NCBI GenBank assembly: GCA_949737515.1 | Contig: CATJCP010000201.1 | Coordinates: forward strand, 471-64,470 | Reading direction: 5' to 3' | DNA: 64,000 nucleotides | DNA from: an uncultured Oscillospiraceae bacterium | GTDB taxonomy: Bacteria; Bacillota; Clostridia; Oscillospirales; Ruminococcaceae | In this document: positions 9,966-64,000 of the stretch, in pieces | How positions within the stretch are numbered: the stretch's first letter is position 1 | Layout: each line of letters begins with the position of its first letter | The notes under the pieces: generated by a model | What the model saw: the letters and a program-made list of their open reading frames with translations, nothing else | What the model was told of the DNA's origin: nothing | The model's database searches: none | Translations under genes and position numbers: made by a program

Positions 9966-10173
9966 AAAAAGACCACCTTTGTTCAAGATGATTCTATCAT
10001 ACGACAATAATTAACACATTTGGCAATTACCGACATAACTCGACAAAACATCCACCTTTATCCATGATTTAATTATGTTATACATCATTAAATTTGGCAA
10101 AACTGGGCTGGAGTGGACTTTCAGACAGGAAACCGCGCTGGCGTTTCCCGATAGAAATTTTGATGGACTCCCC

Positions 10174-22410: not shown

Positions 22411-22446
22411 TTTGCTCGACCTCTTTTCATGTTTTATTTTGGCCGG

Positions 22447-22606
22447 ACAAAAAATGACGCCCCCATTACTGCCATTGACAGCTTCGGGGACGTGTGCTGG
22501 TTTAGATTGATATATCACGCCTTTCGCTCCCTACGCCGGTATGACCCGTATCAGGTTAAAAGGGTTGGAGACGCTGCTCCTCTCAGCCTTTCGGCACCCC
22601 TGCTTT
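22447..22606 (-). ncRNA. TPP (THI-box) riboswitch with terminator expression platform
   Basis: Minus strand reads GGGGTGCCGAAAGGCTGAGAGGAGCAGCGTCTCCAACCCTTTTAACCTGATACGGGTCATACCGGCGTAGGGAGCGAAAGG, carrying the conserved CUGAGA, ACCUGAU and ..UACC.GCG elements. Downstream hairpin ACGTCCCC...GGGGGCGT plus TTTTTT (22447-22493) lies about 37 nt before the thiT ATG. Confidence 0.85.
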
Positions 22607-22684
22607 GGCAATGTCAGTCGTTTTTATGCTTTGCAATGCTGATAGAACCATTGCAAAGACAGACGCCGCTGATTTGTCCAGTTC

Positions 22685-35500: not shown

Positions 35501-38500
35501 GGACCTGCCGGTGGATGGAGCCGGGAACAGGTGACCCTCGCCCCCTCCGGGGGATTGCCCGAGGATCAGCTGGAAAGCTATGAATACTGCGTCACTGAGA
35601 CGGACCAGAAACCTGGAGAGGACGCAGAGTGGGAGGCCTTCCAGCGGGAGCTCAATGTCTACCGGGAGATGGACGCCTATTTTTGGTTCCGGGCAGTTTC
35701 CCTCTGCGGGACCAGAGGAGGGGAATCCTCCAGCCCGGTCCATCTGCAGATTGACCGGACGGCTCCAGTGATCCGCAGGGAGTCGGTGGCGGATATCACC
35801 GAAAATGCCGCTGTTATTTCCCTGGAAAGCGGGGAGTCGGGAGAGGTTTATTACTTGTTGGAATCAGGGGGTTCCTCTGAAGATGGTCCGGAAGCAGAGG
35901 AGATTGCAGAGGGAACCTCCACGGGGAAGATAGACGGACAGGCTAGTTTCCCCATTATGGGGTTGGAATCCGGCGGGGAATACACCGTTTCCTTGGTGGT
36001 AAAGGACCGGGCGGGAAACCTTTCCCGTCCCGCGCAGCTGAGCTTTGTCACCAAGCCGCCCATGCCCCAAGGGGTGTTGACCGAAATCGACTACCAGGAG
36101 GAGACCATCCGTTTTTCCTCCCAGTATGAGCTCAACGACAGCCCGGACTTCCCCGATGCAGGGGAAATTGTCAGCGGAACCATTTCCGCCTATATCCCGG
36201 GGCCGGGAGAACCGGCGCGGACTCTTTACCTCCGCTCCAAGGCGGAGGGGGATCTCCCTGCCAGCGATCCCATGGAGGTGACCATTCCGCCCAGGCCGGA
36301 AAATACCGCGTCAGTGGAGATTGATTACTATGGGGAGACCGTATCCCTGGAGCCGGGGATGCTCTACTCCTTTGACGGGGAGGAATTTGAGGAGGCGGAT
36401 GGCCCTGTTTCCATTTCCGGCCGGATACCGGAGGAGGATGAGCGTGTGACCCTCTCCTACCGCATGGCCGCCACAGAAACACAGTTTGCCAGCGCCATAG
36501 AGGGAATAAATATTCCCGCCCGCCCCGCTGCGCCTCCTGCCCCTGCCTTAAAAGAGCAGGGCAAGGACTCCATCACGCTGGACGGAGCGGAAAACGGCGC
36601 CTATTACCGCTGCGACGGCGGCAGTTGGCAGAAGAGCATGGTATTCCAAGGACTGGCTCCTTCCACTGCCTATACCTTCGAGGCCTATATTCCGGCCACA
36701 GAGCAAAACTTTTCCTCCCGGGAGAGCCAGTCCAGCGAATTCGCCACCCTGTTCGCCCTGCCGGAGGAGGACGCGGCGGCCATCAGCTTTGAGGATGAGA
36801 CCATTACCTACGACGGCCAGAAATACGAGGTCAGCCTGGACGAGTCCTTTGAGGATATCATTCGGGACGGCGGCTCTATTTCCGAATATATCCCTGCGGC
36901 GGGCAGCGGGGAGGGGACCTTATATATCCGCGCCAGAGGGGACCGGGAGACGTCTCCCAGCGAGGGGGAGGCCTTTTCCCTTCCGGCCCGTCCGGAGCCG
37001 CCGGTGATCCGGGCGGCGGCAGGGCTTTACAACATTATGGCAGTCTACGGAGATAACCAGGAGTTTTATCTCGCCGAGGCCGGAGACAGCGAGGACATCG
37101 ACTGGGATGAAGTCCGCTGGCAGGATTCCGGCAGCTTCCGGGGACTGGAAGCTGGGACGGAGTATGTCCTCTATGCTCAGGTGGCCTCTGGGGAAAACAG
37201 CTTCCGCTCCGAAAGGGTCCAGGCCCGAGTGAAGACCCTTGCCTCGGTCGCAGTACAGACCGGTGGGGAGGGGGAGGGCCAGGGAACCGCCTCTGTATTG
37301 GTCAACGGCACGCCCCTTTACGCCGCCGAGCCGGGAGACGTCCTGGAATGGCGGGCAGAGGGCAGCAGCGAGTATACCCCTTCCCTGTCTGTGGAGGGGA
37401 CCGCTGGGGAGATTTCCGGGCCGTACCGGGAGGGGGATGCTTGGATCTGGCGCTCCACTGTCTCGGATGAGGATCAGGAGATCGAAGGGACGGTGGACTT
37501 TGGCCAGAGGAAGCTTGTCTCGATACAGCCGACCGTAAAGACCGTATCGCTCACTGCCGGTTCCCAGGCCAATGAGAGCGTCAGTGCCATACAGGACCAC
37601 CTGGAGGGAACGGTGCCGGTGCAGGCCCTTTACGACAATGGGGCTTGGGAGGAGATGTACCTCCCCTATATCCTTTCGGAGGACTCCGAAGACTGGGAGC
37701 CAAAGGGCGGAGAGTACCTGTTTTCCGCCCAGTCGGAGGAGGACGGGGATATCTCCTGCGATGTGAAGGTGATCGTCCATCCGACAGTGGCTGCAGTGGA
37801 CGCGGGCGGGGACATCTTCCTCCCTGTCAGTCCAGAGGGATATTCCCTCTCTGATATCCCCCTGCCGGAGACAGCCAGAATCCGCTATTCCTCTGGAGAA
37901 GAGGAAGATCTGGATATCCAGTGGGACCGTCCCGCTGTCCCCGGCGGCTTTGGAACCCGGGAGGGAAGACTTTCCTTTATTGGGGAAATAGAGCTGCCGG
38001 AATGGGCTGTGGGGGAGGCTGAGGTCTCCGTCACCGTTGCGGCGGTGGAGCAGGAGGACATCAGCCAATTCCTTACCCTGTCCATAGAGGGGTGGGAGTA
38101 CGGCGAACCGGCCAAGGCGCCCAAGGCAGAGGCGGAACAGGGAGTTTCCCTAAATGACACCGCCTTTACATACACATACAGCGGCATTGCCCTGGACGGG
38201 AGTCCTCTGGAGGATTCGGAGGAGCCCCCGGAGAAGGCGGGGGTCTATACCCTTCGGGCAGTCTATCAGGACGCGGAGCAGGCGGGTTCCGTCACAGCGC
38301 CTTTGGAGATAAAGGCCGCGCCCCTGACCGTGGCGTCGGCGGAGCTGCCTGTCAAGGCCTATGATGGGCAGTCCGGCGCGGAAATTTCCTCTATTGCCCT
38401 GGATGGGGCGAAAAACGGGGATGACCTTGTACTCGGAAGGGACTTTGAGGCAGCGGGAATCTTCTTTGAGGATGGACAGGTGGGCTCCGCCAAGGCCGCA

Positions 38501-40333
38501 GAGGGCGGCCTCGTGCTCTGCCTCACAGGACGGGCCGCCAACTATACCATTGAGCCCTCCTTCCAGGCTGTGGGGGAAATTGCCCTGGGAGAGGGCCGGG
38601 ACAACCCTGCCTACCAGTCCACCCGCGCCCAGATGGAGGAGCTGCACATCATCACCAACCGGACCCCCACCATAGGGGATGTAAAGTTGCCCAAGGGGTG
38701 GAGCTTTACCAGAGATTCCTCTGAAAAGCTGCTGGGGGATAGCCAGTCGGAGTATCAGACGTTCTCCTTCCGGTATACCTCCCAGGATGAGAACTACGGC
38801 GATGTAACCGAGGATATCTCCATACCGGTTACGACGGTTGCCGCCGGCATTGAGGGCGGGGAGATACAGCTCCTTCGGCTGGAAAAGCTGGGGGAGGCCC
38901 GGCGGCTGCCCCGGGTCGGGGTTTCGGTACTTGGGGCGCAGCTTCCCGGCAGAACACCAAGCGCAGATGATTTCTATTGGTTCTCCCGCAACAATCTTGT
39001 GCGGGTCGAGGACGCCTACGCCACCCCCATGGGGGATGGGGTCGGCCTTCTGGAGCTCCGGTATGAGGGGAGCGCCGCACCGGCTGCCTGCCTATTGGTG
39101 GAGATCAACAGCGGCAATCCCTCCAAAAACACCATGGCGGATCTTCTGGAAATTGCGGAGGATATCAACCGTCTGTTGGGCAGCGCCAGCGGAAACTTAG
39201 AAGAAGAGGAGCGGGAATTTTTGCAGTCTGTGATCCAGGGGGCCTCTAAGGTACAGGGAGGCCAAACCCAAACCCTGACGCTGGAACAGGCAGAACTTTT
39301 AGATGAGTTCCAGCAAAAGGGCCTGAATGTGACGCTGGAAACCCTTCTGGAATCTGTCCCAGGCACGCCTGCACCAGCGGATGTTTCCGGCTGGGGGATT
39401 GGGGCCGCAGCCAGGGCCGAGGTTAACGACAAGGTGATGCTGGCCGTCACCCCGGTTCAGCCTACAGCGGGGTCGGCTATGGAGCTGGAGCTTGCGCTGA
39501 CCAAAAATGGCGCCCCTGTAGAGGGGGAACTTTCCAGCGCGGTTTTCCTGCGCATGACCCTCCCGGACGGCATCTCCGCAGACGCCATTGGGGAGATCCA
39601 TCAGGCCAAGGGGGAGAGGGCCAATGACTGGACCCCCATCCCCTTCCGAAAGGATGGGCAGGACATTACAGTCAAGCTGGACTCCCTGGAAAAAATACAT
39701 CTTCTGACAGGGGGGAACGGCGGGGACGCTTCCTTTGACAGCGTGCCGGAGGCTGCTGGTGAGACAGCTCTGCCCGCCGCCCAGGCGGATTTTTGGGATA
39801 CTGCTGCTTCAGTTGTCCGGGAGGCCTCCGAGGGCGGAACGGTACGCATCAACGCCAAGGGCTTTGACAGAATGCCGGTCTCCTTTATGGATACTCTGGG
39901 GGAGAATCCCCAGGTGGCGGTCCTGATCCATTGGAACGGTGGGGAGAACATTTTGATCCCCGCCGGCGAGGGCGAAACGCCGGAATCCGATAGGGCCTTC
40001 TATCCCTTGGCGTGGCTGGAGGAGCGGTATGGATCCGGGCAGGCCCATGGCCGATTGGCTGCAGGGGACGTTTGGTCCGTAAACGCGCCGGATGAGGCGG
40101 ATGTGGCCCTGACCGGGGAAACTGTCACCGGAAAGGAACAGGGAGTGGCTTCCTCCCCGCTGACAGAGAAGGAGCCCCAGGACAAGGATCCGGTATCGGA
40201 AAAGGACCTGCCCGCAGGAAGCAGCGCCGTGAAGACAGAAGATAAGAGATCGGCTGTGCCGCTGATACTGGCAGGGCTTCTGGCAGCCGGCCTGTGCGCG
40301 GTGTTTGTAATCCGGACCATCCGGCGCAGATAA
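32552..40333 (+). CDS. giant (2593 aa) secreted, C-terminally membrane-anchored surface protein with MBG(YDG/NY)-type, Ig/FN3-like and novel repeat modules
   Basis: Signal peptide MKKNWKLFLLAFTAAASSLCLTVNA and a Cys-rich motif. S/T/Q linker. MBG-like modules (LTYGQTL; RVYDGS...NYTLEG; ADNYIIDYVPGELII; KAYDGQ...ANYTIEP). FN3-like GLAPSTAYTFEAY and GLEAGTEYVLYAQ. C-terminal TM AVPLILAGLLAAGLCAVFVI plus RTIRRR. No LPXTG. Confidence 0.85.
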   Translation: MKKNWKLFLLAFTAAASSLCLTVNAVDVPSILSSSCLCEQLCTSESIDGSCPVCRENYHDCKGTVRSPSEAAPGESSQGGLVIYSFESLAPDVAVQQSEGTDLSSLRFPVSLRGEIRNQGGELESVMIAVTWELDPSGGAAAFQGDVPGEYRFIPLIPSRYSVAGGVALPRITIQVGGGTGTPSASSTASSSSTAANNIAAGVSSGQPSSQGSSTPQVSQASQPQSSQTSQPDRLSGSGPVEFRFEKEAYEAMRGAPTLTAAVTVSGGASLGGSAVLYLDNQEMERKNVTVAGAYPFTVKVQDLLPGKHVLRGEYIPAGERSAAAIVTAELEIKGGAFTVQTMPSAENLTYGQTLSESEISPGTVVDSLGAAVKGEFQWKDPDYMPKTGPSEVYPVVFRPEDSSSGETIEMQVQVGVRPAVLTVTEVSSYGRVYDGSRRLMRCTIGFEGQPEDARDDRVVIVGEVLLGSPVGGGASGDVGRYRAVDLQNLFLAGMNSENYTLEGVAALEDVPLEREIEITPARLTVSVREPVVITMGDPMPELAQEDLSILGLVPGETDSEIDFEEMSTSCTPENSREPGSGTIKAEGLEADNYIIDYVPGELIIEEMVFDGLPYDVEGEKGANGWYTGEITLTPNDSAGRFQFISVNGGRSWDDSVTIDEEGIHELSILMGTAAGRDGVSVEVPAFSYKLDEEAPQLGRMKTNYSEDWTNEDASFTLSCENTPASPVTFYVRVNGGEWSPISGDTYTTASIQTVEFKAVSESGQESPPSQEYEVKIDKAGAGKPSLTGASPNWTAEEAILTVKAPSPMPESGIREFSYSTNGGKRWSDPIEWEEDGENRFIIDEDGDYTNNILVRIVTNVGSEGESVPYTVKLDSSEPEFSVSAVSDGKSYEEGEPSEQPITFTITPEEGEDIPSGVTYFYSTDDGAQWTALAGNQLMIHPTQTVQRTAYTFKAVTGAGVESEEETFRVLLYRPSFTPTRASGPAGGWSREQVTLAPSGGLPEDQLESYEYCVTETDQKPGEDAEWEAFQRELNVYREMDAYFWFRAVSLCGTRGGESSSPVHLQIDRTAPVIRRESVADITENAAVISLESGESGEVYYLLESGGSSEDGPEAEEIAEGTSTGKIDGQASFPIMGLESGGEYTVSLVVKDRAGNLSRPAQLSFVTKPPMPQGVLTEIDYQEETIRFSSQYELNDSPDFPDAGEIVSGTISAYIPGPGEPARTLYLRSKAEGDLPASDPMEVTIPPRPENTASVEIDYYGETVSLEPGMLYSFDGEEFEEADGPVSISGRIPEEDERVTLSYRMAATETQFASAIEGINIPARPAAPPAPALKEQGKDSITLDGAENGAYYRCDGGSWQKSMVFQGLAPSTAYTFEAYIPATEQNFSSRESQSSEFATLFALPEEDAAAISFEDETITYDGQKYEVSLDESFEDIIRDGGSISEYIPAAGSGEGTLYIRARGDRETSPSEGEAFSLPARPEPPVIRAAAGLYNIMAVYGDNQEFYLAEAGDSEDIDWDEVRWQDSGSFRGLEAGTEYVLYAQVASGENSFRSERVQARVKTLASVAVQTGGEGEGQGTASVLVNGTPLYAAEPGDVLEWRAEGSSEYTPSLSVEGTAGEISGPYREGDAWIWRSTVSDEDQEIEGTVDFGQRKLVSIQPTVKTVSLTAGSQANESVSAIQDHLEGTVPVQALYDNGAWEEMYLPYILSEDSEDWEPKGGEYLFSAQSEEDGDISCDVKVIVHPTVAAVDAGGDIFLPVSPEGYSLSDIPLPETARIRYSSGEEEDLDIQWDRPAVPGGFGTREGRLSFIGEIELPEWAVGEAEVSVTVAAVEQEDISQFLTLSIEGWEYGEPAKAPKAEAEQGVSLNDTAFTYTYSGIALDGSPLEDSEEPPEKAGVYTLRAVYQDAEQAGSVTAPLEIKAAPLTVASAELPVKAYDGQSGAEISSIALDGAKNGDDLVLGRDFEAAGIFFEDGQVGSAKAAEGGLVLCLTGRAANYTIEPSFQAVGEIALGEGRDNPAYQSTRAQMEELHIITNRTPTIGDVKLPKGWSFTRDSSEKLLGDSQSEYQTFSFRYTSQDENYGDVTEDISIPVTTVAAGIEGGEIQLLRLEKLGEARRLPRVGVSVLGAQLPGRTPSADDFYWFSRNNLVRVEDAYATPMGDGVGLLELRYEGSAAPAACLLVEINSGNPSKNTMADLLEIAEDINRLLGSASGNLEEEEREFLQSVIQGASKVQGGQTQTLTLEQAELLDEFQQKGLNVTLETLLESVPGTPAPADVSGWGIGAAARAEVNDKVMLAVTPVQPTAGSAMELELALTKNGAPVEGELSSAVFLRMTLPDGISADAIGEIHQAKGERANDWTPIPFRKDGQDITVKLDSLEKIHLLTGGNGGDASFDSVPEAAGETALPAAQADFWDTAASVVREASEGGTVRINAKGFDRMPVSFMDTLGENPQVAVLIHWNGGENILIPAGEGETPESDRAFYPLAWLEERYGSGQAHGRLAAGDVWSVNAPDEADVALTGETVTGKEQGVASSPLTEKEPQDKDPVSEKDLPAGSSAVKTEDKRSAVPLILAGLLAAGLCAVFVIRTIRRR
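36074..37010 (+). repeat. three ~78-aa protein-level repeat modules inside the giant gene
   Basis: The three modules are IDYQEETIRF...ISAYIPGPGEPARTLYLRSKA...VTIPPRPE, then IDYYGETVSL...ISGRIPEEDERVTLSYRMA...INIPARPAAP, then ISFEDETITY...ISEYIPAAGSGEGTLYIRARG...FSLPARPEPP. The second and third are separated by an FN3-like module. Confidence 0.7.
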
Positions 40334-47845: not shown

Positions 47846-48754
47846 TCAGCCTTTTACAGCGCCGATCATAATGCCTTTTTCAAAGTACTTGTAGACAAAG
47901 GGGTAGATTACTAAAATCGGGATGAGGGAGATCATAATCAGGGCGGATTTTACCTGTATCTGCCCAAGCTCTGTACCTTCCACCGCCTGCTTAAAGAAGT
48001 TGGAGGCATTGTCGTTGCTCATAAGGATCAGGGTATTGCGGAGCACTGCCTGGAGAACCAATTTGTTCTTATCCTGTATATACATGGTGGCGGCAAACCA
48101 GGAGTTCCAGTGCCCCACCCCTACCCACAGGCCGATGGTGGTAAGCACTGGCTTGGAAAGGGGGAGAACAATCTGGGCAAAGGTGGTAAAATGCCCTGCC
48201 CCGTCAATACGGGCGGCCTCCTCCAGGTCCGTCGGGATGGACATGAAGAAGTTGCGGATCACCATGATGTTAAAGGCGCTTACAATATTCTGGCACATGA
48301 GGACAAACAGGGTGTTGAGCAGGTTGAGCTGCTTCATAGCAATGTAGGTGGGGATAATGCCGCCGTTAAAGAGCATGGTGAATACAAGGAGAAATGTAAA
48401 AACATTGCGTCCAGGCAGATCGCGGCGGGCAAGGGGATAGGCAAACAGGGTATAGACCACCAGGGCTAGGAAGGTACCGCCTGCTGTAACCAAAATGGTG
48501 TTTTTATATCCAAGCCATACAGACGGGGCCTTGAGCAGGTTTTTATAGGCGTCTATGGTCATTTTGCCGGGAATAGGGAAGAAATGGAATCCTCCCCGGA
48601 AAGCTTCGTCGTTGGTGCTCAGAGAGACCGAAGTCACATGGAGAAAGGGATAAAGGGCGGTCAGGGCAATAAAGCCCACCAATATGGCCACAATCCAGCC
48701 AAAAATCGCGTCCCCTCGGGTTTTACGGATGGCGTTGGGATTTTTCTTGCTCAT
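47846..48754 (-). CDS. carbohydrate ABC transporter permease (LplC-type)
   Basis: EAA loop LEEAARIDGAGHFTTFAQIVLPLSKP, six TM segments. Confidence 0.9.
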   Translation of the reverse strand: MSKKNPNAIRKTRGDAIFGWIVAILVGFIALTALYPFLHVTSVSLSTNDEAFRGGFHFFPIPGKMTIDAYKNLLKAPSVWLGYKNTILVTAGGTFLALVVYTLFAYPLARRDLPGRNVFTFLLVFTMLFNGGIIPTYIAMKQLNLLNTLFVLMCQNIVSAFNIMVIRNFFMSIPTDLEEAARIDGAGHFTTFAQIVLPLSKPVLTTIGLWVGVGHWNSWFAATMYIQDKNKLVLQAVLRNTLILMSNDNASNFFKQAVEGTELGQIQVKSALIMISLIPILVIYPFVYKYFEKGIMIGAVKG

Positions 48755-48829
48755 GGGTAAACCTCCTTCAAGTTTTTGAAAGCTTTCTTACGGTACAATT
48801 TTTGCACAGGGAATGGGGGGAACCGGAGC

Positions 48830-49792
48830 TTAGAACAATGTGCTCTCATCCCCACCTACAACAGAGGCGATCTTATTAGTAGTAAGGACAAAGATCAATC
48901 CGACCACCGATTTAAAAAGCCCAATTGCAGTTCCGTAGGAATAGTTCATTTCTTGAAGGCCCTTTTTATAAACATAGGTATCAATGATTTCGGCCTTATC
49001 CAGAACAGCGGAGTTCATCATATTAAAAATCTGATCAAAGCCCGCGTTGAGGATGGAGCCGACGCTGAGGATCAGCATAATGACAATGACGTTGGAGATG
49101 GCCGGCAGGGAGATGTGCCACATCTGTTTGAGCTTGCCCGCGCCGTCCAGAACAGCGGCCTCATAGAGCTGTGGATCCACGCCGGATAGGGCGGCGGTGT
49201 AGATGACACTGTTCCAGCCCAAAGTCTGCCAGATGCCGGTAATGACAACAATTTTAACAAAGGTATTGCCTTCCCCTAGGAAGACGGTGGGCTGTCCCCC
49301 GAAGATCTGAACCAGGTAGTTAAAGGGTCCGTCCAAAGAGAACAGGTTGATAAAAATACTGGACAGGACGACCCAGGAGACAAAGTAGGGGAGGAAGGAG
49401 AAGGCCTGGGCCACCTTTTTATATTTTTGATTGGTGATTTCATTTAAGAGGAGGGCAAAGATCACAGGGATGGGAAATCCAAAGATCAGCTTACTGAAGC
49501 TGATCACCACGGTGTTGCGCAGCGCTTGGAGAAAAAATTTATCCCGGAAGGCCTGTTGGAAATATTTCATCCCCACAAACTCACCGCTGAGTATGCCGCC
49601 GGTAAAACTGAATTCCCGGAACGCCAAGCCTATGCCGTACATGGGCATATAGTGGAAAAAAAACAGACAGACGAGGCCGGGAATGAGCATTAAGTAAAAG
49701 ACACGGTAACTCCAAATATGTTTGCACTTTTGGGCGAATCCAGACGGACGGTCCTGCGCGGGGGCGGCGAGAGCTGACTTCTTCACAGCCAT
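48830..49792 (-). CDS. carbohydrate ABC transporter permease (LplB-type)
   Basis: YRVFYLMLIPGLVCLFFFHYMPMYG N-terminus. EAA loop YEAAVLDGAGKLKQMWHISLPAISN. Confidence 0.9.
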   Translation of the reverse strand: MAVKKSALAAPAQDRPSGFAQKCKHIWSYRVFYLMLIPGLVCLFFFHYMPMYGIGLAFREFSFTGGILSGEFVGMKYFQQAFRDKFFLQALRNTVVISFSKLIFGFPIPVIFALLLNEITNQKYKKVAQAFSFLPYFVSWVVLSSIFINLFSLDGPFNYLVQIFGGQPTVFLGEGNTFVKIVVITGIWQTLGWNSVIYTAALSGVDPQLYEAAVLDGAGKLKQMWHISLPAISNVIVIMLILSVGSILNAGFDQIFNMMNSAVLDKAEIIDTYVYKKGLQEMNYSYGTAIGLFKSVVGLIFVLTTNKIASVVGGDESTLF

Positions 49793-50730
49793 TACCTCCT
49801 TTTAATAATATGTTACAGTCCAGAGGGAGGACTTCCCGGATAGAGAGGCGACCTCAAAAACTGCCATAATCGTTTTAAGTGAAAATTCCCTGTGGAATGG
49901 TATTATTGTAGCATTTTCATGGGTAAATTGTCAATCGTCCATTCAATATTTTTTCATAAAAAAGGACAAATGTTAATTATAATCATATAATTCAGCGGTA
50001 AATTAGTATTTATACTGCTTATATATTGTTTAAAAATCATTTTATTTTGAATTTACTTGATATATATTCTCTGGAAGGATAAATACAAGAATATGACAAT
50101 ATTCACTTTTTATAGAGCGTACGAGATCGGTTTTTCCTCCATTTTTTGGATTGGAAAAAAAGGGAAAGAGAAAAGCGATTTTTTGTTCCCTCTGTCTTTC
50201 CCGCAGGGTCTGACAAGGATTGTTTTATGAAAAATTCATAAAACAATTAAACGCCGGAGAGAGAAAGGAACGTTTTTTACATATACAAAATCATTTATCC
50301 AGGTAAATGGATCGTTTTACGAAAAGATACATACACATATTTTACAAATCTGTTTTAAGTTATATCAGGTTTGACCTCTGCAATCTCCCTTGAAATAGTC
50401 CATTTCATTGCTTTTCCATTAGATAAAGAGGGAGTTCCCTATCTTTCAGAGATGCGGGAAAAAGATAAGACGGTTCCATCAAAAATCCATAACATATTGT
50501 ATTTGTATAAAATACAATTTTTCACCTCCTTTTTTGTGGGAAAAGGTAATTTTAGGAGTGTATATCATATCCAAGGCGACGCTCTGACAAAGGAGATTCC
50601 CTTGTAAAAACGTTATATCCAAATGAATCAACCCTTTTCTAGAAAAGAAAAATCTTGTGTATACTCCAAGTTTTGATGAAATTTGTACAACTCCCTGTGG
50701 TCGTGCATTTGATCAAATTGTATTTATATA
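49793..50730. other. ~0.94 kb AT-rich non-coding island
   Basis: Abrupt drop in GC relative to both flanks. No ORF with an RBS. Contains several palindromes (50219-50247; 50497-50519). Confidence 0.7.
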
Positions 50731-50766
50731 GAGGACAAATGCCGGGGGTTCCCGGCATTTGTCCTC
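50731..50766 (-). terminator. strong stem-loop immediately after the CmpB-like gene
   Basis: GAGGACAAATGCCGGG-GGTT-CCCGGCATTTGTCCTC (perfect 16-bp arms), A/T-rich flanks. Confidence 0.6.
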
Positions 50767-50773
50767 TGCAAAC

Positions 50774-51592
50774 TTATGGGGTGATATGCTTTTTCAAACG
50801 CTCCCAGGTCTCCAAATGCTTTCCGGAACGGGCGGAGGGGTTGCGGCGGAGCAGCCGAATCTTATCTGCGCTGAGGCGGTCGTGGAGTTTTTCCAGGTTG
50901 ATAATCTGCCTTTCATGTACAGACTGGAGCTCCCGGGCAAGCTTTTCCCTTTCTTGTGACAGCTTTTCCCTTTCGCGAGCAATAAGGGCTTCCAGCTGTT
51001 CCGCCCTGGCCTGGAGAGCCAGGCGCTCCTCCTGGAGCCTTTCGGAGCGCAGCAACAGCTCTTTCAGATCAATGGCAGTGCGGAAGGAGGAGGTAAAGTC
51101 CGCCGCGAATATGGCGGTAAGCACAAACACGGCGCCGTTCAACGGCTGCTCTGGGATAGCCAGCACCAACCGTTCAATGGGGAGGTGAACGGCATTGACC
51201 ATTAAAAGGCTTAGAAGCCCCCACACAATGGTGGAGCTGAGGCAAATATGCCCCTGGAACTGGAACTTTTTCTGGCTGTAATCCCAGTATCGGACATGGA
51301 ACAAGGCTTCCATACACACACCGGTCACATATTCCAGGAGGGTTGCAGAGAGCGCGCCGCAGAGGAAGGTCAACAGATGGTTTTCCCGAAGGGGAAGGGT
51401 GGAAACGAGGATCACCAGCGCCCCAGAGCCGTATATGGGCAGAAAAGGACCGCGGACAAAGCCCCGGTTGACAAACTTGCGCTGGCTGAGAGAAACCACA
51501 GTGGATTCAAAGCACCAGCCGATAAAACAGTATATGTAAAAAAATAAAAGCCACTGCGACAAAGTATAAACGCCGACAGCTGCAGCGGGCAT
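50774..51592 (-). CDS. membrane protein of the 'putative ABC-transporter type IV' (CmpB-like) family with C-terminal coiled coil
   Basis: FFYIYCFIGWCFESTVVSL...RGFVRGPFLPIYGSGA...LLEYVTGVCMEALFHVRYWDYS is typical of the family. C-terminal ~90 aa heptad-like (LQEERLALQARAEQLEALIAREREKLSQEREKLARELQ). Start ATG 51592 follows GGGAGGG. Confidence 0.7.
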   Translation of the reverse strand: MPAAAVGVYTLSQWLLFFYIYCFIGWCFESTVVSLSQRKFVNRGFVRGPFLPIYGSGALVILVSTLPLRENHLLTFLCGALSATLLEYVTGVCMEALFHVRYWDYSQKKFQFQGHICLSSTIVWGLLSLLMVNAVHLPIERLVLAIPEQPLNGAVFVLTAIFAADFTSSFRTAIDLKELLLRSERLQEERLALQARAEQLEALIAREREKLSQEREKLARELQSVHERQIINLEKLHDRLSADKIRLLRRNPSARSGKHLETWERLKKHITP

Positions 51593-51812
51593 GGCGATCC
51601 CTCCCAAGACAAAAATAATGTTTTTAGAGCTCAAATTGTCCTAACTATATCATACAGCGAATGGATTGTCAATGAAGGGGTAAGTCCCATGGATAAAATC
51701 CTTCAGGCGCCAATCTTCAGCTACCGCCCTCTTATTATTCGACAAAAATCCTGTTATTTGCCATAATAAGGAAAACTGCTTTATATTGCTATTGAAGGAA
51801 GGAGGGAATTAT

Positions 51813-52448
51813 GTGGGAAATGTATACGGATACATCCGTGTAAGCACCAGGGAACAAAATGAAGACCGCCAGCGCCTGGCCCTGCGGGAAGCGGGTGTTC
51901 CCGAAAGCAATATCTGTACAGAAAAGCAGTCCGGACGGGACTTTGACCGTCCTCAATACCAGCGCCTGCTCAGTGTCCTGCAGAAGGACGACCTTCTGTA
52001 TATTAAGAGCATTGACCGCTTGGGGCGCAACTATGAAGAAATTTTACAGCAGTGGAGGGTTCTGACCAAGGAAAAGGGGGTGGATATAGTGGTGTTGGAC
52101 ATGCCCCTGCTGGATACCCGCAGAGGTAAAGACCTGATGGGGACCTTTTTAAGTGACATTGTGCTCCAGGTGCTGTCCTTTGTAGCGGAAAATGAGAGGG
52201 ACAGCATTCGCCAGCGTCAGGCGGAGGGGATTGCTGCCGCCAAGGCCAAGGGCGTGCGGTTTGGCCGTCCGCCCCAGCCTCTGCCAAAAAAATTCCGCAG
52301 TGTATACCGTCGGTGGAAGGAGGGAAAGATCACTGGAGCCGCAGCCGCTCGGGAATGCGGTATGCCCCTGACCAGCTTTTTATACCGGGCGGAGGTTTAT
52401 GGAAAGACCTCCCCAGGCGCCATTGAGAAAAAGATACGGATACTATAA
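51813..52448 (+). CDS. small serine recombinase (resolvase/invertase family)
   Basis: VYGYIRVSTREQNEDRQ (catalytic Ser), SIDRLGRNY, ENERDSIRQRQAEGIAAAKAKGVRFGRP, C-terminal HTH. GTG 51813 lies 6 nt after GGAGGG. Confidence 0.85.
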   Translation: MGNVYGYIRVSTREQNEDRQRLALREAGVPESNICTEKQSGRDFDRPQYQRLLSVLQKDDLLYIKSIDRLGRNYEEILQQWRVLTKEKGVDIVVLDMPLLDTRRGKDLMGTFLSDIVLQVLSFVAENERDSIRQRQAEGIAAAKAKGVRFGRPPQPLPKKFRSVYRRWKEGKITGAAAARECGMPLTSFLYRAEVYGKTSPGAIEKKIRIL

Positions 52449-52675
52449 TTTGCCTTATAAGGGCTTTGCGCAGATTAAAAAATTCACAGAAACTTCATAG
52501 AAAAGATGACGCAGCTCGCCATTTTCATTGGTTTAAGTAAATAGAGCAGGGAGAGAGGCGCGGCACCAGAGAAAGATAAAAATGTCACAGAAAAGTCACT
52601 TTGCCCTGATAACCTTAAAACAGCCGGAACATAAAGACATAGAGATTGAGGACGTTTATTAAGGAGGAAATCGGT

Positions 52676-59413: not shown

Positions 59414-59452
59414 AAACAAATGTTTGATTTTTTCTCAAAAAATTGGTATGAT
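59414..59452 (+). promoter_or_regulatory. lexA promoter with overlapping SOS-box-like palindrome
   Basis: AAAC-AAAT-GTTT (59414-59425) overlaps the -35. TTGATT (59424-59429), 17 nt, TGG-TATGAT (59447-59452). Confidence 0.5.
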
Positions 59453-59591: not shown

Positions 59592-60194
59592 ATGGGCAAA
59601 CAGGAAATTATGGAGCAAAGGATTCTCACTTACATCAACGAGCGGATATCCGAAGGAGTGCCTCCTTCCATTCGCGAGATATGCGCCGCCCTTTCCATCA
59701 AGTCCACATCAACGGTACACCGCTACCTGAAATCCCTTGAGGACAAGGGGCTGCTGATGCGGGGCCAGAACCTGAACCGGTCCATCCGCCTCGCCTCCGC
59801 AGGTTCTGAACGGGACAGAACCATCAACGTCCCCCTGGTGGGAACGGTCACCGCCGGCCAGCCGATTCTGGCAGTGGAGGAGATAGAGGGGTATGTTCCC
59901 TTCCGGACAGACCGCTACCGTTCCGACGAACTCTTTGCCCTCCATGTCCGGGGGGAGAGCATGATAAACGCCGGTATTCTGGATGAGGATATTATCATCG
60001 CCAGAAAAACCCCTTATGCCCGCAATGGGGAGATCGTTGTGGCGTTAATTGAGGACGAGGCAACGGTCAAGACCTTTTACAAGGAAAAGGGGCATTACCG
60101 CCTTCAGCCGGAGAACGACTATATGGACCCGATTATTGTGGACAGCGTTTCCATTTTAGGGAAGGTTGTATCTCTGCTGCGGTTCTTTGAGTGA
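59592..60194 (+). CDS. lexA: LexA repressor
   Basis: N-terminal wHTH (SIREICAALSIKSTSTVHRYLKSLEDKGLL). Ala-Gly cleavage region (LASAGS), Ser nucleophile VRGESMINAGI, Lys EATVKTF. ATG 59592 follows AAAGGAG. Confidence 0.95.
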   Translation: MGKQEIMEQRILTYINERISEGVPPSIREICAALSIKSTSTVHRYLKSLEDKGLLMRGQNLNRSIRLASAGSERDRTINVPLVGTVTAGQPILAVEEIEGYVPFRTDRYRSDELFALHVRGESMINAGILDEDIIIARKTPYARNGEIVVALIEDEATVKTFYKEKGHYRLQPENDYMDPIIVDSVSILGKVVSLLRFFE

Positions 60195-60294: not shown

Positions 60295-61821
60295 TTGTTC
60301 TGCCGCATCAAAAGCATGGGGGTTTCCGGCATTGAGGCCTTTCCCGTCCATGTGGAAGTCGATACCTCCCGGGGGATGCCCTCCTTTGAGCTGGTGGGCC
60401 TGCCGGACGCCGCTGTCCGGGAATCCCGGGACCGGGTGCGCTCCGCTGTCAACAACAGCGGCCTGACCTTCCCGGTTTCCCGCATCCTGGTCAACCTTGC
60501 CCCTGCCGATGTGCGGAAAACCGGCCCTCTTTATGATCTTCCCATCCTCATGGGAATCCTTCGCGCCACCAATCAGGTACAGTTCCCGGAGGAGGAGTTC
60601 TGCTTTATCGGTGAGCTCTCCCTCTCCGGGGTCTGCGTGCAGATCAGCGGCGTGCTTTCTATGGCCATTGAGGCCAAAAAGCAGGGATGCCGCTACATAT
60701 GCGTCCCGGAGGAAAATGCCCCCGAGGCCGCGGCAGTGGAGGGAATTCAGGTGGTCCCCGTCCGGTCCGTTTCCCAGCTGGTAAAGGAACTCAATGGGGA
60801 GCTTCCCCTGGGGCGCCAGGGTTCGGAGCCGTTCCAGCCCTCCCACCAGCAGTATCCGGTGGACTTTTCCGATGTAAAGGGCCAGCGGTTTGCCAAGCGG
60901 GCGATGGAGATTGCGGCGGCGGGGAGCCATCACATCCTGCTGATCGGCCCGCCTGGTTTAGGGAAGAGTATGCTGGCCAAGCGGCTGCCCACCATCCTGC
61001 CGGAGATGACCTTTGAGGAGGCCATTGAAACCACCAAGATCCACTCGGTGGCCGGCATTCTCCCCAAGGGGCAGGCCCTGATCCAGGAGCGGCCCTTCCG
61101 CTCTCCTCACCACTCGGTTTCCGCGGCAGGCCTTTCCGGCGGCGGCAGCATCCCCAAGCCTGGGGAGATTTCCCTGGCCCACAACGGGGTTTTGTTTTTG
61201 GATGAGTTTCCCGAGTTTAACCGCGCTGCGCTGGAACCCCTCCGCCAGCCTATGGAGGACGGGACCATCACCATTTCCCGCGCCCAGGGGCGGCTCACCT
61301 ATCCTTGCTCCGTGATGCTGGCCGCTGCCATGAACCCCTGTCCCTGCGGCTTTTTCGGCCATCCCACCAGAAAATGTACCTGTTCGCCGCTGACGGTTTC
61401 CAAATACCTTTCCCGCATCAGCGGGCCTATGCTGGACCGGCTGGACCTGCATGTGGAGGTTATGCCGGTGGAGTTTGAAACCCTTTCCTCCACTGAAAAG
61501 GCGGAATCCTCCGCAGCCATTCGGGAGCGGGTAAACCGTGCCCGAAAACGGCAGCTGGCCCGAATGGAGCAGACCCATGTGCCCTGCAACGCCAGGCTGT
61601 CCCCCGGGGCCATGGAAAAGGTGTGCGTACTGGCTGGTTCAGCCAAAAAGATGCTTCAGCAGGCCTTTGAGAGGATGGGAATGTCGGCCAGAGCTTACGA
61701 CCGCATTTTAAAGGTTGCGAGAACGGTGGCGGATCTTGATGGCTGTGAGACAATTGACGCCGGGCACATTGCCCAGGCCATACAATACCGGAGCCTGGAC
61801 CGGAAATACTGGGAGAGGTAG
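60295..61821 (+). CDS. comM: YifB/ComM family Mg-chelatase-like AAA+ ATPase
   Basis: Lon-protease-like N-domain (GIEAFPVHVEVDTSRGMPSFELVGLPDAAVRESRDRV). Walker A GPPGLGKSM, Walker B VLFLDEFPEF, zinc-like CPCGFFGHPTRKCTC. TTG start 8 nt after AGGAGG. Confidence 0.9.
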   Translation: MFCRIKSMGVSGIEAFPVHVEVDTSRGMPSFELVGLPDAAVRESRDRVRSAVNNSGLTFPVSRILVNLAPADVRKTGPLYDLPILMGILRATNQVQFPEEEFCFIGELSLSGVCVQISGVLSMAIEAKKQGCRYICVPEENAPEAAAVEGIQVVPVRSVSQLVKELNGELPLGRQGSEPFQPSHQQYPVDFSDVKGQRFAKRAMEIAAAGSHHILLIGPPGLGKSMLAKRLPTILPEMTFEEAIETTKIHSVAGILPKGQALIQERPFRSPHHSVSAAGLSGGGSIPKPGEISLAHNGVLFLDEFPEFNRAALEPLRQPMEDGTITISRAQGRLTYPCSVMLAAAMNPCPCGFFGHPTRKCTCSPLTVSKYLSRISGPMLDRLDLHVEVMPVEFETLSSTEKAESSAAIRERVNRARKRQLARMEQTHVPCNARLSPGAMEKVCVLAGSAKKMLQQAFERMGMSARAYDRILKVARTVADLDGCETIDAGHIAQAIQYRSLDRKYWER

Positions 61822-61902
61822 GGCCCCAGAGAGAACGGAAAAGTTCCAAGTGCAGTATCAAGCTGCCCATATAGCTGCGGAAAAAGCGGCAAAAGGACGG
61901 TG

Positions 61903-63087
61903 ATGCAATTGAAGACGCTGGTTGAACTGTTTGACCTGGAAAACACTTTAGACAATATTCTGGCAAGCCATATCTTCCGCCCGGAGCGGGTGGTGTTCCT
62001 CACCGACGAGCGGAGGGAATGTATATCCAGGATATGGGAGATTGAGCGGGCCCTTACCCGCAAATACCCGGGAATGAAGTTTACCATCCAGCCCCTGAAC
62101 ACCAGCCGCAATGTGGATGAGGTGTGCGAGCGGCTTATGGCCACCTGCCCCGACCCGGTCTTTGACCTGACAGGGGGAAGCGACGCCATCAGCTTTGCCA
62201 TTATGGAGCTGTGCCACAGGCGGTTCCGCCCCTGCTTCTGCATAGACTGGCGGGAGGGGGTTCTCCTGTGCTCAGAGGCAGCGGAGGACTACAAAAAGGA
62301 ATTCCAGATGCCCACCCTTTTGCTGGAGGACTTCCTGGAGGCCAACGGCGCCATGATTCTGCGAAAGATGCACTCCACCCCGCCGGAGAAAAGGTATGAC
62401 GCAATCCTCGCCTTTTTCCAGGAAACCCTGAAGCGGCCCAAGGAATGGCTGATGTTCTGCCGGTTTCTCCAGCAGGCGGCGGCAGAGGCCAGCCGGAAGC
62501 GCCATCCCGCTGTGATCCAGTGCAAACATTCCATCTCCGACCCCAACGGCAAAGTTGCCCAGTTCCGGCCTGACTTCGCCCAGCTTGCCTACCGCCTCGG
62601 GTTTCTGAAAAACCTGGAGATTACCCCCAACCAGATACATATGAGGTTTGCGGATGATACCTCTCTGCGGTATCTGACCTCTCAGGGGACCTGGCTGGAG
62701 CTGTACTGCTTTATTATGGCCCGGAGGACAGGGTGGTTCCACGAATGCCAGATGAGCGTGGTTATTGACTGGGACGGCATCCCCCAGCGGCGGGACAATG
62801 TGGTCAATGAGATCGACGTGATGCTGATACGGGGGATTACGCCGGTTTTTATCTCCTGCAAAACCTCGGTGCCCAATACGGAGAGCCTGAATGAGATCGA
62901 GCTTTATGCCAAAAAGCTGGGCGGGGCGGGAGCAAAATCCATGCTGGTGACCACCGCGGACCTGAGCAATGCGCCCACTGTCCGGGTGCGGGCCAAGGAG
63001 CTGGACTTGATTTTGGTCGAACGGGAGGATCTGCTGAAAGAGGACGGCATCCTGCCCTTTTTGAAGCGGGCGGGGAATGTTCCGTAA
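61903..63087 (+). CDS. Card1/Can2-like protein: N-terminal CARF-like Rossmann domain + C-terminal PD-(D/E)xK (DUF1887) nuclease-like domain
   Basis: CARF-like VVFLTDERRE...PVFDLTGGSDAISFAIME (hxxTGGx motif). C-terminal GTWLELYCFIMARR ... NEIDVMLIRGITPVFISCKTS is a D...x-C-K restriction-endonuclease-fold motif, with Ser where the family usually has Glu. Confidence 0.65.
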   Translation: MQLKTLVELFDLENTLDNILASHIFRPERVVFLTDERRECISRIWEIERALTRKYPGMKFTIQPLNTSRNVDEVCERLMATCPDPVFDLTGGSDAISFAIMELCHRRFRPCFCIDWREGVLLCSEAAEDYKKEFQMPTLLLEDFLEANGAMILRKMHSTPPEKRYDAILAFFQETLKRPKEWLMFCRFLQQAAAEASRKRHPAVIQCKHSISDPNGKVAQFRPDFAQLAYRLGFLKNLEITPNQIHMRFADDTSLRYLTSQGTWLELYCFIMARRTGWFHECQMSVVIDWDGIPQRRDNVVNEIDVMLIRGITPVFISCKTSVPNTESLNEIELYAKKLGGAGAKSMLVTTADLSNAPTVRVRAKELDLILVEREDLLKEDGILPFLKRAGNVP

Positions 63088-63207: not shown

Positions 63208-64000
63208 ATGCAGTATATCCCTGCAAAGACCATTGTCACCCGCACCAAGTCCACCCAGTGGTTTGGCGCAAGCTATAATATGAATATCTACCGGGGATGC
63301 TGCCATGGCTGTATCTACTGCGACAGCCGCAGCGAATGCTATGGGATTCAGGAGTTTGACCAGGTGTGCGCCAAGGAAAAGGCCCTGGAGATCATCCGCG
63401 GCGACCTCCGGCGAAAGGTAAAGCCGGGGATTGTCTCCACCGGGGCCATGAGCGACCCCTACAACCCCTTTGAGGGGGAGCTGGAACTGACCCGCCATGC
63501 CCTGGAGCTGCTTTGCGCCTATGGGTTTGGCGTGTGCATTGCCACCAAAAGCGCACTGATCCTGCGGGACATTGACATTCTGCAGGAAATCGCGGGGCAA
63601 AACCCGGCAGTGTGCAAAATCACCATTACCACCTGCGACGACCGGCTCTCCGAAAAAATCGAACCGGGTGTGCCGGCGTCTTCCCGCCGGTTTGAGGTGG
63701 TGGAGGAGCTTTCCCGCGCTGGGCTGTTCGCGGGGATCCTTCTGATGCCGGTACTCCCCTTTTTGGAGGACACAGAGGAGAATGTCCTTGGCATTGTGGA
63801 ACGGGCTGCCAGGGCAGGGGCCAGGTTCATCTATCCGGCCTTTGGCATGACCCTGCGGCAGAACCAGCGGCAGTACTACCTGCAGAAGCTGGAGGAGCTG
63901 TTTCCCGGGAAAGGGCTGGCGGAGCGGTATCAAAGGCAGTATGGGATGTCCTATGAGTGCGCAAGCCCTCAGGCAAGGAAGCTGTGGAAGGCATTTTCGG
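63208..64000 (+). CDS. radical SAM protein, SplB/'DNA repair photolyase' (COG1533)-like; 3' end outside the window
   Basis: Not in the ORF track because no stop lies in the window. My translation: MQYIPAKTIVTRTKSTQWFGASYNMNIYRGCCHGCIYCDSRSE... (CxxxCxxC cluster), ...GAMSDPYNPFE..., open to base 64000. GGGAG RBS. Confidence 0.8.
   Translation, partial: MQYIPAKTIVTRTKSTQWFGASYNMNIYRGCCHGCIYCDSRSECYGIQEFDQVCAKEKALEIIRGDLRRKVKPGIVSTGAMSDPYNPFEGELELTRHALELLCAYGFGVCIATKSALILRDIDILQEIAGQNPAVCKITITTCDDRLSEKIEPGVPASSRRFEVVEELSRAGLFAGILLMPVLPFLEDTEENVLGIVERAARAGARFIYPAFGMTLRQNQRQYYLQKLEELFPGKGLAERYQRQYGMSYECASPQARKLWKAFS

Follow-up and report, generated by a model that had tools for sequence, protein, structure and literature searches.

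CARF domains are commonly treated as sensors of type III CRISPR cyclic oligoadenylates, and their orphan relatives are usually dismissed as relics. The closest described systems fall on both sides of this divide. SthCan2, TresuCard1, Dysgonamonadaceae Can2 and Cdn1 (Protein Data Bank entries 7BDV, 6WXW, 8BAO and 9U49; we took the identity of 8BAO from our Foldseek table) are nucleases switched on by cyclic tetra-adenylate (cA4), or by cA4/cA6, and come from type III loci. VC1899 of Vibrio cholerae (1XMX) is the founding orphan of DUF1887, unlinked to type III and with weak, unregulated RNase activity, read as possibly degenerate and 'cast adrift' (PMC7969007), and further PF09002 genes unlinked to CRISPR have been reported (PMC4012209); indeed, CARF homologues are abundant outside CRISPR loci (PMC4012209, PMC7969007, PMC12669027). 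TieA (HP0986) of Helicobacter pylori, another orphan annotated as DUF1887, binds and cleaves DNA (PMC5100599), albeit in a different phylum and with host-interaction roles assigned to it. Here we analyse a 64,000-nucleotide stretch of contig CATJCP010000201.1 from an uncultured Oscillospiraceae bacterium (the whole stretch is 'the window' below), which encodes a 394-aa protein of the DUF1887 family. On balance, and with a fair share of doubt, we take it to be a functional member of a distinct and ancient Clostridia branch of DUF1887, detached from type III signalling and acting as a nuclease that answers to a ligand other than cA4.

That the protein belongs to DUF1887/PF09002 and has the Card1/Can2 fold is settled. 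All peptide strings from which the preliminary description, made from the sequence alone, had recognised a Card1/Can2-like CARF-nuclease (VVFLTDE, FDLTGGSDAISFA, GTWLELY and EIDVMLIRGITPVFISCKT) are present in the translation of the open reading frame (ORF), and Pfam, PADLOC, a clade profile and Foldseek all bear this assignment out. Pfam PF09002 (Card1_endonuc) matches residues 260-375 with 34.6 bits against a gathering score of 26.4, and the PADLOC profile CARF4--CARF_PDDEXK covers the protein at full length (residues 4-381, 5.2e-53). As a single-sequence query the protein already matches two Can2 proteins of known structure, 8bao and, by way of the N-terminal CARF half, 7bdv, and a profile built from 50 clade members matches SthCan2 (2.8e-14), VC1899 (1.1e-12, full length), 8bao (8.5e-10) and Card1 (5.8e-7, full length). 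The AlphaFold2 model built from the same alignment has a mean predicted local distance difference test score (pLDDT) of 94.8 and a predicted template-modelling score (pTM) of 0.90. Searched with Foldseek against the Protein Data Bank, it returns VC1899 (1xmx) as top match (3.9e-21, TM 0.70/0.73), next 9u49 (Cdn1, 1.2e-18) and 7bdv (SthCan2, 2.9e-18), and also 8bao, 6xl1 and 8q3z; these six are full-length matches with TM values of 0.6-0.77. Only below VC1899, Cdn1, SthCan2, Dysgonamonadaceae Can2, Card1 and TbrCan2 do Can1 and isolated CARF domains (ring-nuclease, Csm6) follow. Hence an unrelated PD-(D/E)xK family without a CARF domain, which had been raised as a possibility, finds no footing, profile and structure searches returning the CARF-nuclease family instead. 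Model and Foldseek agree on a three-part architecture in one chain (Table 1): a CARF domain with alternating strands and helices to residue 123, a helical insertion with the clade-invariant residues W182 and Q190, and a C-terminal PD-(D/E)xK domain, whose alpha-beta-beta-beta-alpha-beta core spans helix 263-276, strands 281-289, 301-310 and 313-320, helix 326-343 and strand 345-350. As for the start of the gene, a GTG at 61900 offers an alternative for the same plus-strand ORF (end 63087), but we prefer the ATG at 61903 because the Shine-Dalgarno sequence AAGGA lies 5 nt upstream of it. An identical 394-aa protein is found on six contigs among public gene calls, and members are named 'DUF1887 family CARF protein' by NCBI.

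Among described proteins, ours works most like VC1899, with which it shares the orphan state, the best structural match, a full-length profile match and acidic residues (Asp9/Asp34 in VC1899, D11/D35 here) at the positions of SthCan2 Ser19 and Thr42. VC1899 differs in having ECK at the nuclease site, Tyr-Lys in the following helix, Arg at the Lys99 position and N-A-S-C-G-L-R as ligand loop, where our protein has SCK, Asn-Glu and D94; since identity is also no higher than ~16%, we see the clade of our protein as separate from VC1899. The two differ, moreover, in that VC1899 has been read as possibly degenerate, whereas the clade described here is strongly constrained and widespread. With SthCan2, TresuCard1, Dysgonamonadaceae Can2 and Cdn1 our protein shares the three-part architecture, the E...ExD...xCK framework, the T-G-G core of the CARF loop and a C-terminal R-A-x-E-L-G helix. 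What sets these cyclic oligoadenylate-activated nucleases apart is their NxTGGTK loop, their Ser/Thr/Lys/Tyr contacts, ECK, the helix Lys and their type III loci. As the loop motif, the cA4 contacts and the type III linkage (in the window and in 80 related loci) are all missing from our protein, a functional Can2/Card1 label does not fit it.

It is the CARF pocket where this departure is clearest. The motif NxTGGTK is reported in all seven Can2 clades, its Thr-Gly-Gly-Thr-Lys holding the ribose and phosphate groups of cA4 (PMC10783487), and the cA4 contacts conserved between Can1 and Can2 are Ser19, Thr42, Lys99 and Tyr118 in SthCan2 numbering (Zhu et al., PMC7969007). To follow these positions through the clade we counted residues in 81 genomic copies (from species-representative genomes, see below) and, for some positions, in 138 diverse representatives at 50% identity; which columns correspond to those of SthCan2 was read from a single low-identity profile alignment. 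Our protein has lost all four contacts, with acidic residues at three of these positions in most copies, while D88-L-T-G-G-S-D94 stands where NxTGGTK would be expected (Table 1). Clade-wide, the ligand loop reads D/E-x-T-G-G-x-D/E, and hence keeps the T-G-G core (G91 is invariant, G92 present in 78 of 81 copies). Positions 88 and 94 are strongly constrained, yet Asp and Glu replace each other there, which shows that it is charge that is selected at these two sites. With its contacts lost and its acidity conserved, the pocket is under selection yet seems ill-suited to a polyanionic cyclic oligoadenylate, and judging by these alignments it probably no longer senses cA4. There is precedent for both halves of this view: the cA4-insensitivity of VC1899 was explained, together with biochemistry, by Asp9, Asp34, Arg96 and Val115 at the four contacts (PMC7969007), and ligands of another kind were considered possible for CARF families in which strand 4 is not followed by a basic residue (Makarova et al., PMC4012209). 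The conserved acidic pocket is the real departure from Card1/Can2, and one that the preliminary description missed.

In contrast to the pocket, the nuclease site retains the family motif, which Jungfer et al. write as E-ExD-(E/S)CK for Can2 (PMC10783487): E266, E303-I-D305 and S318-C-K320 are each invariant in the 81 genomic copies. The preliminary description rightly noted that the catalytic Glu is replaced by Ser (I-S-C-K), and alignments to the solved relatives agree, ECK being found at these columns in all those matched by sequence (7bdv, 1xmx, 8bao, 6wxw). Its further suggestion that this Ser marks a special catalytic alteration finds no support. Ser occupies the S318 position, followed by Cys-Lys, in all 120 closest database homologues (down to 27% identity), Ser-Cys-Lys is found in 81 of 81 genomic copies and 135 of the 138 representatives, and TbrCan2, whose Ser356 corresponds to Card1 Glu308 and SthCan2 Glu291, is an active cA4-dependent nuclease in which that Ser takes part in outer-sphere metal coordination (PMC10783487). 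With (E/S)CK a published variant and TbrCan2 active with Ser, SCK does not imply inactivity and should not be read as inactivation. By comparison, the ExD acids are critical in a relative, as an E276A/D278A variant of SthCan2 is inactive (PMC7969007).

What is peculiar to the clade lies in the helix after the SCK strand. Its column pair is Tyr-Lys in Card1, SthCan2 and VC1899 and Asp-Lys in 8bao, so that the Lys is common to all four; the clade has Asn-Glu instead, with the Glu (E331) present in 81 of 81 genomic copies and in 127 of the 138 representatives. Going by the alignment, the acidic residue may thus have been relocated from the beta-strand (Glu to Ser) to the following helix (E331). 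A site of this kind is familiar from Cfr10I/NgoMIV-type restriction endonucleases, in whose PD...SxK site an adjacent helix contributes a Glu to make up for the acidic residue that is missing; we draw a mechanistic analogy only, as these enzymes are of unrelated sequence, lack a CARF domain and perform sequence-specific restriction. Closer to home, TbrCan2 (clade 1 Can2, 8Q3Y-8Q44) resembles our protein in its Ser at the ECK-Glu position and, with E331 as proposed, in drawing catalytic residues from the following helix. It differs in its motif (E-ExD-SxTTS-K), which has no strand Lys and relies on Lys369/Glu372 in the helix, in keeping NxTGGTK and in being type III-D encoded, whereas our protein reads S-C-K-T-S with a strand Lys and has Glu331 in the helix. 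Seven representatives (P0240, P0243, P0246, P0254, P0259, P0260 and P0266; loci L094 and L095 in our numbering) pair SCK with the canonical helix 'E-L-Y-K', and from their sequences look like evolutionary intermediates. The gene lies among the core genes Spo0A, MetH, AlaRS and ScpAB in L094; in L095 the order is HTH_3, the gene, two small ORFs and an AAA+ protein longer than 985 aa, and this looks to be a different module, possibly of a defence type.

The same residues bear on the idea that the protein is a catalytically dead or weak CARF protein serving as ligand sensor, sponge or nucleic-acid-binding regulator. It draws support from the two replacements just described, Ser for the metal-binding beta-strand Glu of Card1/SthCan2 and Glu for a helix Lys that is essential for TbrCan2 DNase activity (Lys369), and from the orphan VC1899 with its weak and unregulated RNase (PMC7969007). 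We nevertheless hold it to be unlikely, given that E266, E303, D305, S318, K320 and E331 are invariant in 81 of 81 copies, which would be unusual in a dead enzyme, and that Ser supports TbrCan2 activity, '(E/S)CK' being a normal family variant (PMC10783487).

As for the size of the clade, a full HMMER pass over 1.84 billion representatives gave 4582 matches at E<=1e-3, 2530 at E<=1e-10 and 934 at E<=1e-30. Relatives occur in at least 343 species genomes (one genome per GTDB species), a lower bound because the scan, seeded with a 13-sequence subset, favours copies with a PVFISCK or G-x-x-LE-LY pattern. The best 80 of these 343 genomes, which we used for locus comparison, are all Clostridia; taxon labels are given as in the records and comprise Oscillospiraceae, Ruminococcaceae, Vescimonas, Anaerotignum (complete genome and type-strain assemblies), Metalachnospira, Fimicola, Epulonipiscium and metagenome-assembled genomes labelled Lachnospiraceae. 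A neighbour-joining tree of the 81 proteins separates an Oscillospiraceae-type branch, to which the window belongs, from an Anaerotignum/Lachnospiraceae-type branch, and classes of genomic context are largely grouped by branch. This distribution is the signature of vertical inheritance in both branches, and hence of a cellular gene rather than a mobile defence accessory. Selection on the clade is strongly purifying: the ratio of non-synonymous to synonymous substitution rates (dN/dS) is 0.14 between the gene in the window and its counterpart in locus L014 (86% identity) and 0.04-0.12 for pairs within Anaerotignum. Each of the 80 loci fetched has an intact ORF, and N18, P27, G91, E266, E303, D305, S318, C319, K320 and E331 are invariant in all 81 copies.

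Put together, the size, age, vertical inheritance and strong constraint of the clade, with catalytic residues preserved and a pocket remodelled yet conserved, point to a working sensor-nuclease that was exapted to another input. By analogy with Can2, such an enzyme would be a homodimeric, Mn2+/Mg2+-dependent nuclease. In place of the helix Lys, E331 would supply the acidic residue lost from the beta-strand, and the acidic CARF pocket may bind a ligand other than cA4, or possibly none. If it does bind a non-cA4 ligand, activity would be coupled to a cellular rather than a CRISPR signal. Of the three alternatives offered by the preliminary description, it is the 'stand-alone sensor-nuclease with a different ligand' that fits best; the gene is an orphan in the window and in every related locus examined. 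Several points weigh against our reading. Acidic pockets can bind nucleotides via metals, so a cyclic or linear oligoadenylate ligand is compatible with the sequence, and the pocket is not uniformly defined, position 35 being Asp in 57 of 81 copies and the Tyr118 column variable. With the helix Lys gone, which is catalytic in TbrCan2 (Lys369), DNase activity could be lower or lost altogether. It is an alignment column that puts E331 in the active site, and nuclease activity, dimerisation and ligand gating are all attributed by homology. Finally, our searches covered the 64 kb window and the flanks of the related loci, with which a distant type III system or another cyclase elsewhere would be compatible.

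One may go further and envisage a CARF-nuclease that was captured from CRISPR signalling before the Oscillospiraceae/Lachnospiraceae-type split and is now a core enzyme of endospore-forming Clostridia with an endogenous ligand that is not a cyclic oligoadenylate, an option to which we can give only limited credence. Candidate ligands would include nucleotides or nucleosides whose ribose diol is free, amines and ligands bridged by a metal, and the signal would gate the rearranged S-x-K...E site on host nucleic acids in development or stress. The lead in this direction comes from the Lachnospirales-type branch, where the gene order is TauE, a small ORF, Lit, DUF2953 (YtfI family), Spore_YtfJ (GerW family) and the DUF1887 gene. 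The gene directly follows ytfI and ytfJ in L025, L031-L033, L039, L041, L042, L044, L045, L048-L050, L053, L056-L058, L060, L064-L066, L073, L077, L079, L080, L082, L083, L087, L088 and L092; in 28 of 28 loci the genes lie on the same strand, with ytfI and ytfJ overlapping and a median gap of 16 bp between ytfJ and the gene (in L057, for example, ytfJ spans 9551-9955 and the DUF1887 gene starts at 10001), while downstream genes vary. On the tree, this linkage is confined to the Anaerotignum/Lachnospiraceae-type branch. As ytfJ (gerW) is a forespore gene, the operon-like arrangement hints at co-expression with forespore genes in that branch; on the captured-enzyme view, it would put the enzyme in a forespore or germination programme. 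Were this view right, no CARF effector before ours would have served in housekeeping or development, and a new class of ligand would come with it.

In the window the gene has other neighbours. The preliminary description placed it after lexA and comM/yifB and before a SplB-like radical SAM gene, of which the first two stand, both scoring above their cutoffs (Table 1). The third belongs to the COG1533 'SplB-like' group, though its NCBIfam matches of Rv2578c/PA0069 type (~150 bits) stay below cutoffs. We considered and rejected it as a true spore-photoproduct lyase, since it has no match to the spore-photoproduct-lyase model. Because the 81-bp gap that follows comM holds no terminator-like site, and no promoter-like one was found from comM to the start codon, co-transcription of lexA, comM and the gene is plausible and, from the sequence, probable in this genome, albeit as a lineage-specific trait and not a property of the family. 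The order lexA-comM-gene-radical SAM-sigma-70 recurs in L014 only, and in L015 (59% identity) there is no comM upstream. Single elements turn up elsewhere: lexA lies directly downstream of the gene in L043 (11257-11913), comM two genes off and on the opposite strand in L067 (11835-13376), and a radical SAM gene adjoins in L071 (9507-10358) and lies 3 kb off in L029 (5810-6610). These single recurrences in the sub-branch of the window exceed chance and probably reflect decay of an ancestral gene order. The ytfI-ytfJ arrangement is much more stable than the lexA-comM arrangement; comparison of the 80 loci rules out lexA-comM as a conserved partner and identifies it as local synteny, in whose place the Lachnospirales-type branch has ytfI-ytfJ.

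With such neighbours, the protein could be imagined as an SOS or DNA-damage nuclease that shares its regulation with lexA and comM and joins the radical SAM protein in repair or recombination. The four genes lie close together on one strand with the uninterrupted comM-gene gap noted above, lexA, comM and radical SAM genes recur beside relatives in the same sub-branch, and a degenerate Cheo-like box (AAAC-AAAT-GTTT, 59414-59425, two mismatches) overlaps the -35 (TTGATT at 59424) of the predicted lexA promoter, which is consistent with lexA autoregulation. Yet this reading, like the DNA-damage link in the preliminary description, seems to us decidedly improbable. There is no GAAC-N4-GTTC LexA operator near the gene, the sole match in the window (1452-1463) being at the level expected by chance (0.8). 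The full arrangement is limited to the 86%-identical L014 and already lost in L015, the whole Lachnospirales-type branch has the ytfI/ytfJ context, and the scattered recurrences fit decay of ancestral order. The comM-gene spacer also holds a GAAC-N6-GTTC palindrome (61833-61846), that is LexA-box half-sites at the wrong spacing.

Turning to CRISPR, the preliminary description had seen no repeats, cas genes, Cas10 or cyclase in the window, and our searches concur. Tandem Repeats Finder returned no CRISPR array in the 64 kb (one trivial 15-nt repeat aside), Rfam at gathering thresholds no CRISPR-DR family (its sole match in the window being a TPP riboswitch), and a k-mer scan of the window for repeats at CRISPR spacing nothing. 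PADLOC on 42 ORFs that cover the window gave cas-related matches to the DUF1887 protein alone; its other matches were mad3 and E1-E2 similarities, the latter probably coming from a ThiF-family protein found by Pfam. Pfam itself, run on the 42 ORFs and on the ten largest or low-GC-region ORFs, found no Cas10 and no cyclase in the window. Nor, as far as 6 kb past the gene, does a complete type III locus lie just outside: contig L001, which extends to that point, has no cas gene but a radical SAM gene, a sigma-70 factor, unknowns, AP endonuclease 2 and GH10.

Related loci give the same picture. Cas10, Csm, Cmr and cyclase were absent at 1e-8 from all 66 non-redundant ORFs of 560-1150 aa (for 101 ORFs) within 10 kb of the gene in the 80 loci, and those annotated with Pfam are ordinary chromosomal neighbourhoods without cas genes, with contexts such as GlnRS/ABC-F, YtfJ/TetR/GidA, glycine reductase/NlpC, Spo0A...MetH/AlaRS/ScpAB and HTH/AAA+. 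A CRISPR array lies within 10 kb in one of the 80 loci (L076:13399-13679); it is isolated, 2.3 kb from the gene, and with five repeats, a 29-nt repeat and a 61-nt period type I-E-like in format, and PADLOC found no cas gene in ~9 kb downstream. CRISPR-like k-mer matches in L056 and L089 were discarded, as they trace to repeats of other kinds, one in tandem, AT-rich and 91 nt long, the other coding and 72 nt long. Different again are L007-L009 (1397-4898 and 15603-16997) with homologue P0014 (38% identity), where genes for a TerB_N/TerB_C protein and BrxC/BrxD-like ATPases lie 5-9 kb upstream, citrate synthase and GlnRS stand between these and the gene, and a group II intron reverse transcriptase follows downstream. 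This context recalls the association with Ter genes noted for some genes of the VC1899 family (PMC4012209).

It follows that a role as type III ancillary effector would require Cas10 elsewhere in the genome, with the protein switched on in trans, be it by cA4 or by some other cyclic oligoadenylate. This is, after all, the best-known role in the family, and a diffusible signal lets effectors act in trans (PMC7969007); fold and T-G-G loop core are kept, and our cas searches covered the window and the loci, which are a part of each genome. To our minds the scenario is very unlikely all the same. Not one of four cA4 contacts is kept, and the Asn and Lys of NxTGGTK, conserved in seven Can2 clades, are acidic in 81 of 81 copies; with cA4-binding residues replaced by conserved acidic ones, a distant type III partner, as the preliminary description had proposed among its alternatives, becomes hard to uphold. 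Vertical inheritance and stable, lineage-specific chromosomal positions are, moreover, unlike the type III loci typical of can2, and the surroundings of more than 80 loci yielded not one cas gene.

A remnant in decay after its CRISPR system was lost, without present function and 'cast adrift' as was suggested for VC1899, would share with VC1899 the orphan context and the lost cA4 contacts, but is effectively excluded by the selection data, namely dN/dS of 0.04-0.14 and ORFs intact in all 80 loci that were fetched, along with the 934 clusters matching at E<=1e-30, relatives in at least 343 species genomes and invariant catalytic and pocket residues.

Orphan PF09002 genes, CARF homologues outside CRISPR and the Ser variant of the motif are already known. 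In the literature consulted we did not find described a large, vertically inherited and strongly constrained Clostridia clade, its acidic pocket, the coupled Ser/Glu331 exchange or the linkage to ytfI-ytfJ. In practical terms, the clade should not be annotated as CRISPR ancillary, nor counted as evidence of type III signalling. Should its ligand be found, the known chemistry of CARF signalling would become broader and a new regulated nuclease would be added for Clostridia, one with possible links to sporulation or DNA metabolism.

Table 1. Coordinates of the DUF1887 gene, its domains and key residues, and of other features in the window (residue counts as defined in the text)
Feature	Position	Strand	Basis and conservation
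Coding sequence, 394-aa DUF1887 (Card1/Can2-fold) CARF-nuclease	61903..63087	+	ORF list, PF09002, PADLOC, model pLDDT 94.8
Shine-Dalgarno AAGGA, 5 nt before ATG 61903	61893..61897	+	sequence reading
CARF (Rossmann-like) domain, residues 1-124	61903..62274	+	SthCan2 CARF alignment, profile positions 6-193
D11, position of SthCan2 cA4-phosphate contact Ser19 (VC1899 Asp9)	61933..61935	+	profile alignment; D in 77/81 genomic copies, 127/138 representatives
D35, position of SthCan2 Thr42			D in 57/81, P in 19/81 genomic copies
CARF loop D88-L-T-G-G-S-D94, in place of N-x-T-G-G-T-K	62164..62184	+	alignments
D88, position of Asn of NxTGGTK			D in 60, E in 21; acidic in 81/81 genomic copies
D94, position of SthCan2 Lys99			E in 46, D in 35; acidic in 81/81 genomic copies
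C113, position of SthCan2 Tyr118			variable column in 81 genomic copies
Helical insertion (INS) domain, residues 125-260	62275..62682	+	model secondary structure, full-length Foldseek superposition
PD-(D/E)xK nuclease domain, residues 261-394	62683..63084	+	PF09002 match 260-375, model
E266 (GTWLELY), putative active-site helix Glu, ~ TbrCan2 Glu304	62698..62700	+	invariant 81/81; equivalence suggested by motif order
E303-I-D305, metal-binding ExD motif (SthCan2 E276/D278)	62809..62817	+	invariant 81/81, alignments
S318-C-K320, Ser form of (E/S)CK	62854..62862	+	alignments, conservation counts
E331, helix after SCK strand, Lys column of Card1/SthCan2/VC1899	62893..62895	+	profile alignment; spatial role putative
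lexA, upstream neighbour	59592..60194	+	TIGR00498, 188 bits vs 111 cutoff; gene calls L002, L003
comM/yifB, Mg-chelatase-like AAA+ gene, 81 bp upstream	60295..61821	+	TIGR00368, 593 bits, above cutoff
Radical SAM gene, Rv2578c/PA0069 (COG1533) type	63208..64000, off window end	+	L001 call (295 aa full), PF04055
Thia_YuaJ thiamine transporter ORF	21820-22518	-	
TPP riboswitch RF00059, directly upstream of Thia_YuaJ ORF	22511-22611	-	Rfam, 60.1 bits
SpoIIE (SpoIIE_N + SpoIIE phosphatase domain)	26018-28456	+	
2593-aa ORF with YDG, MBG_2 and fibronectin type III domains	32552-40333	+	
CmpB-type protein, in low-GC stretch	50774-51634	-	
Serine recombinase, in low-GC stretch	51786-52448	+	

The remainder of the window is varied in content, Pfam finding sugar ABC transporters, glycoside hydrolases, IlvD, MatE, a thiamine transporter, SpoIIE, an AraC regulator, the 2593-aa surface protein, a serine recombinase and the ThiF-family protein mentioned above. 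By its domains, the 2593-aa ORF is probably a giant cell-surface or adhesin-like protein. A stretch at ~48000-52500 stands out by its low GC content (0.44-0.48 versus ~0.57 elsewhere) and holds ABC permeases besides the two genes listed in Table 1; it was possibly acquired horizontally. As SpoIIE is encoded in the window, the host carries core sporulation machinery.

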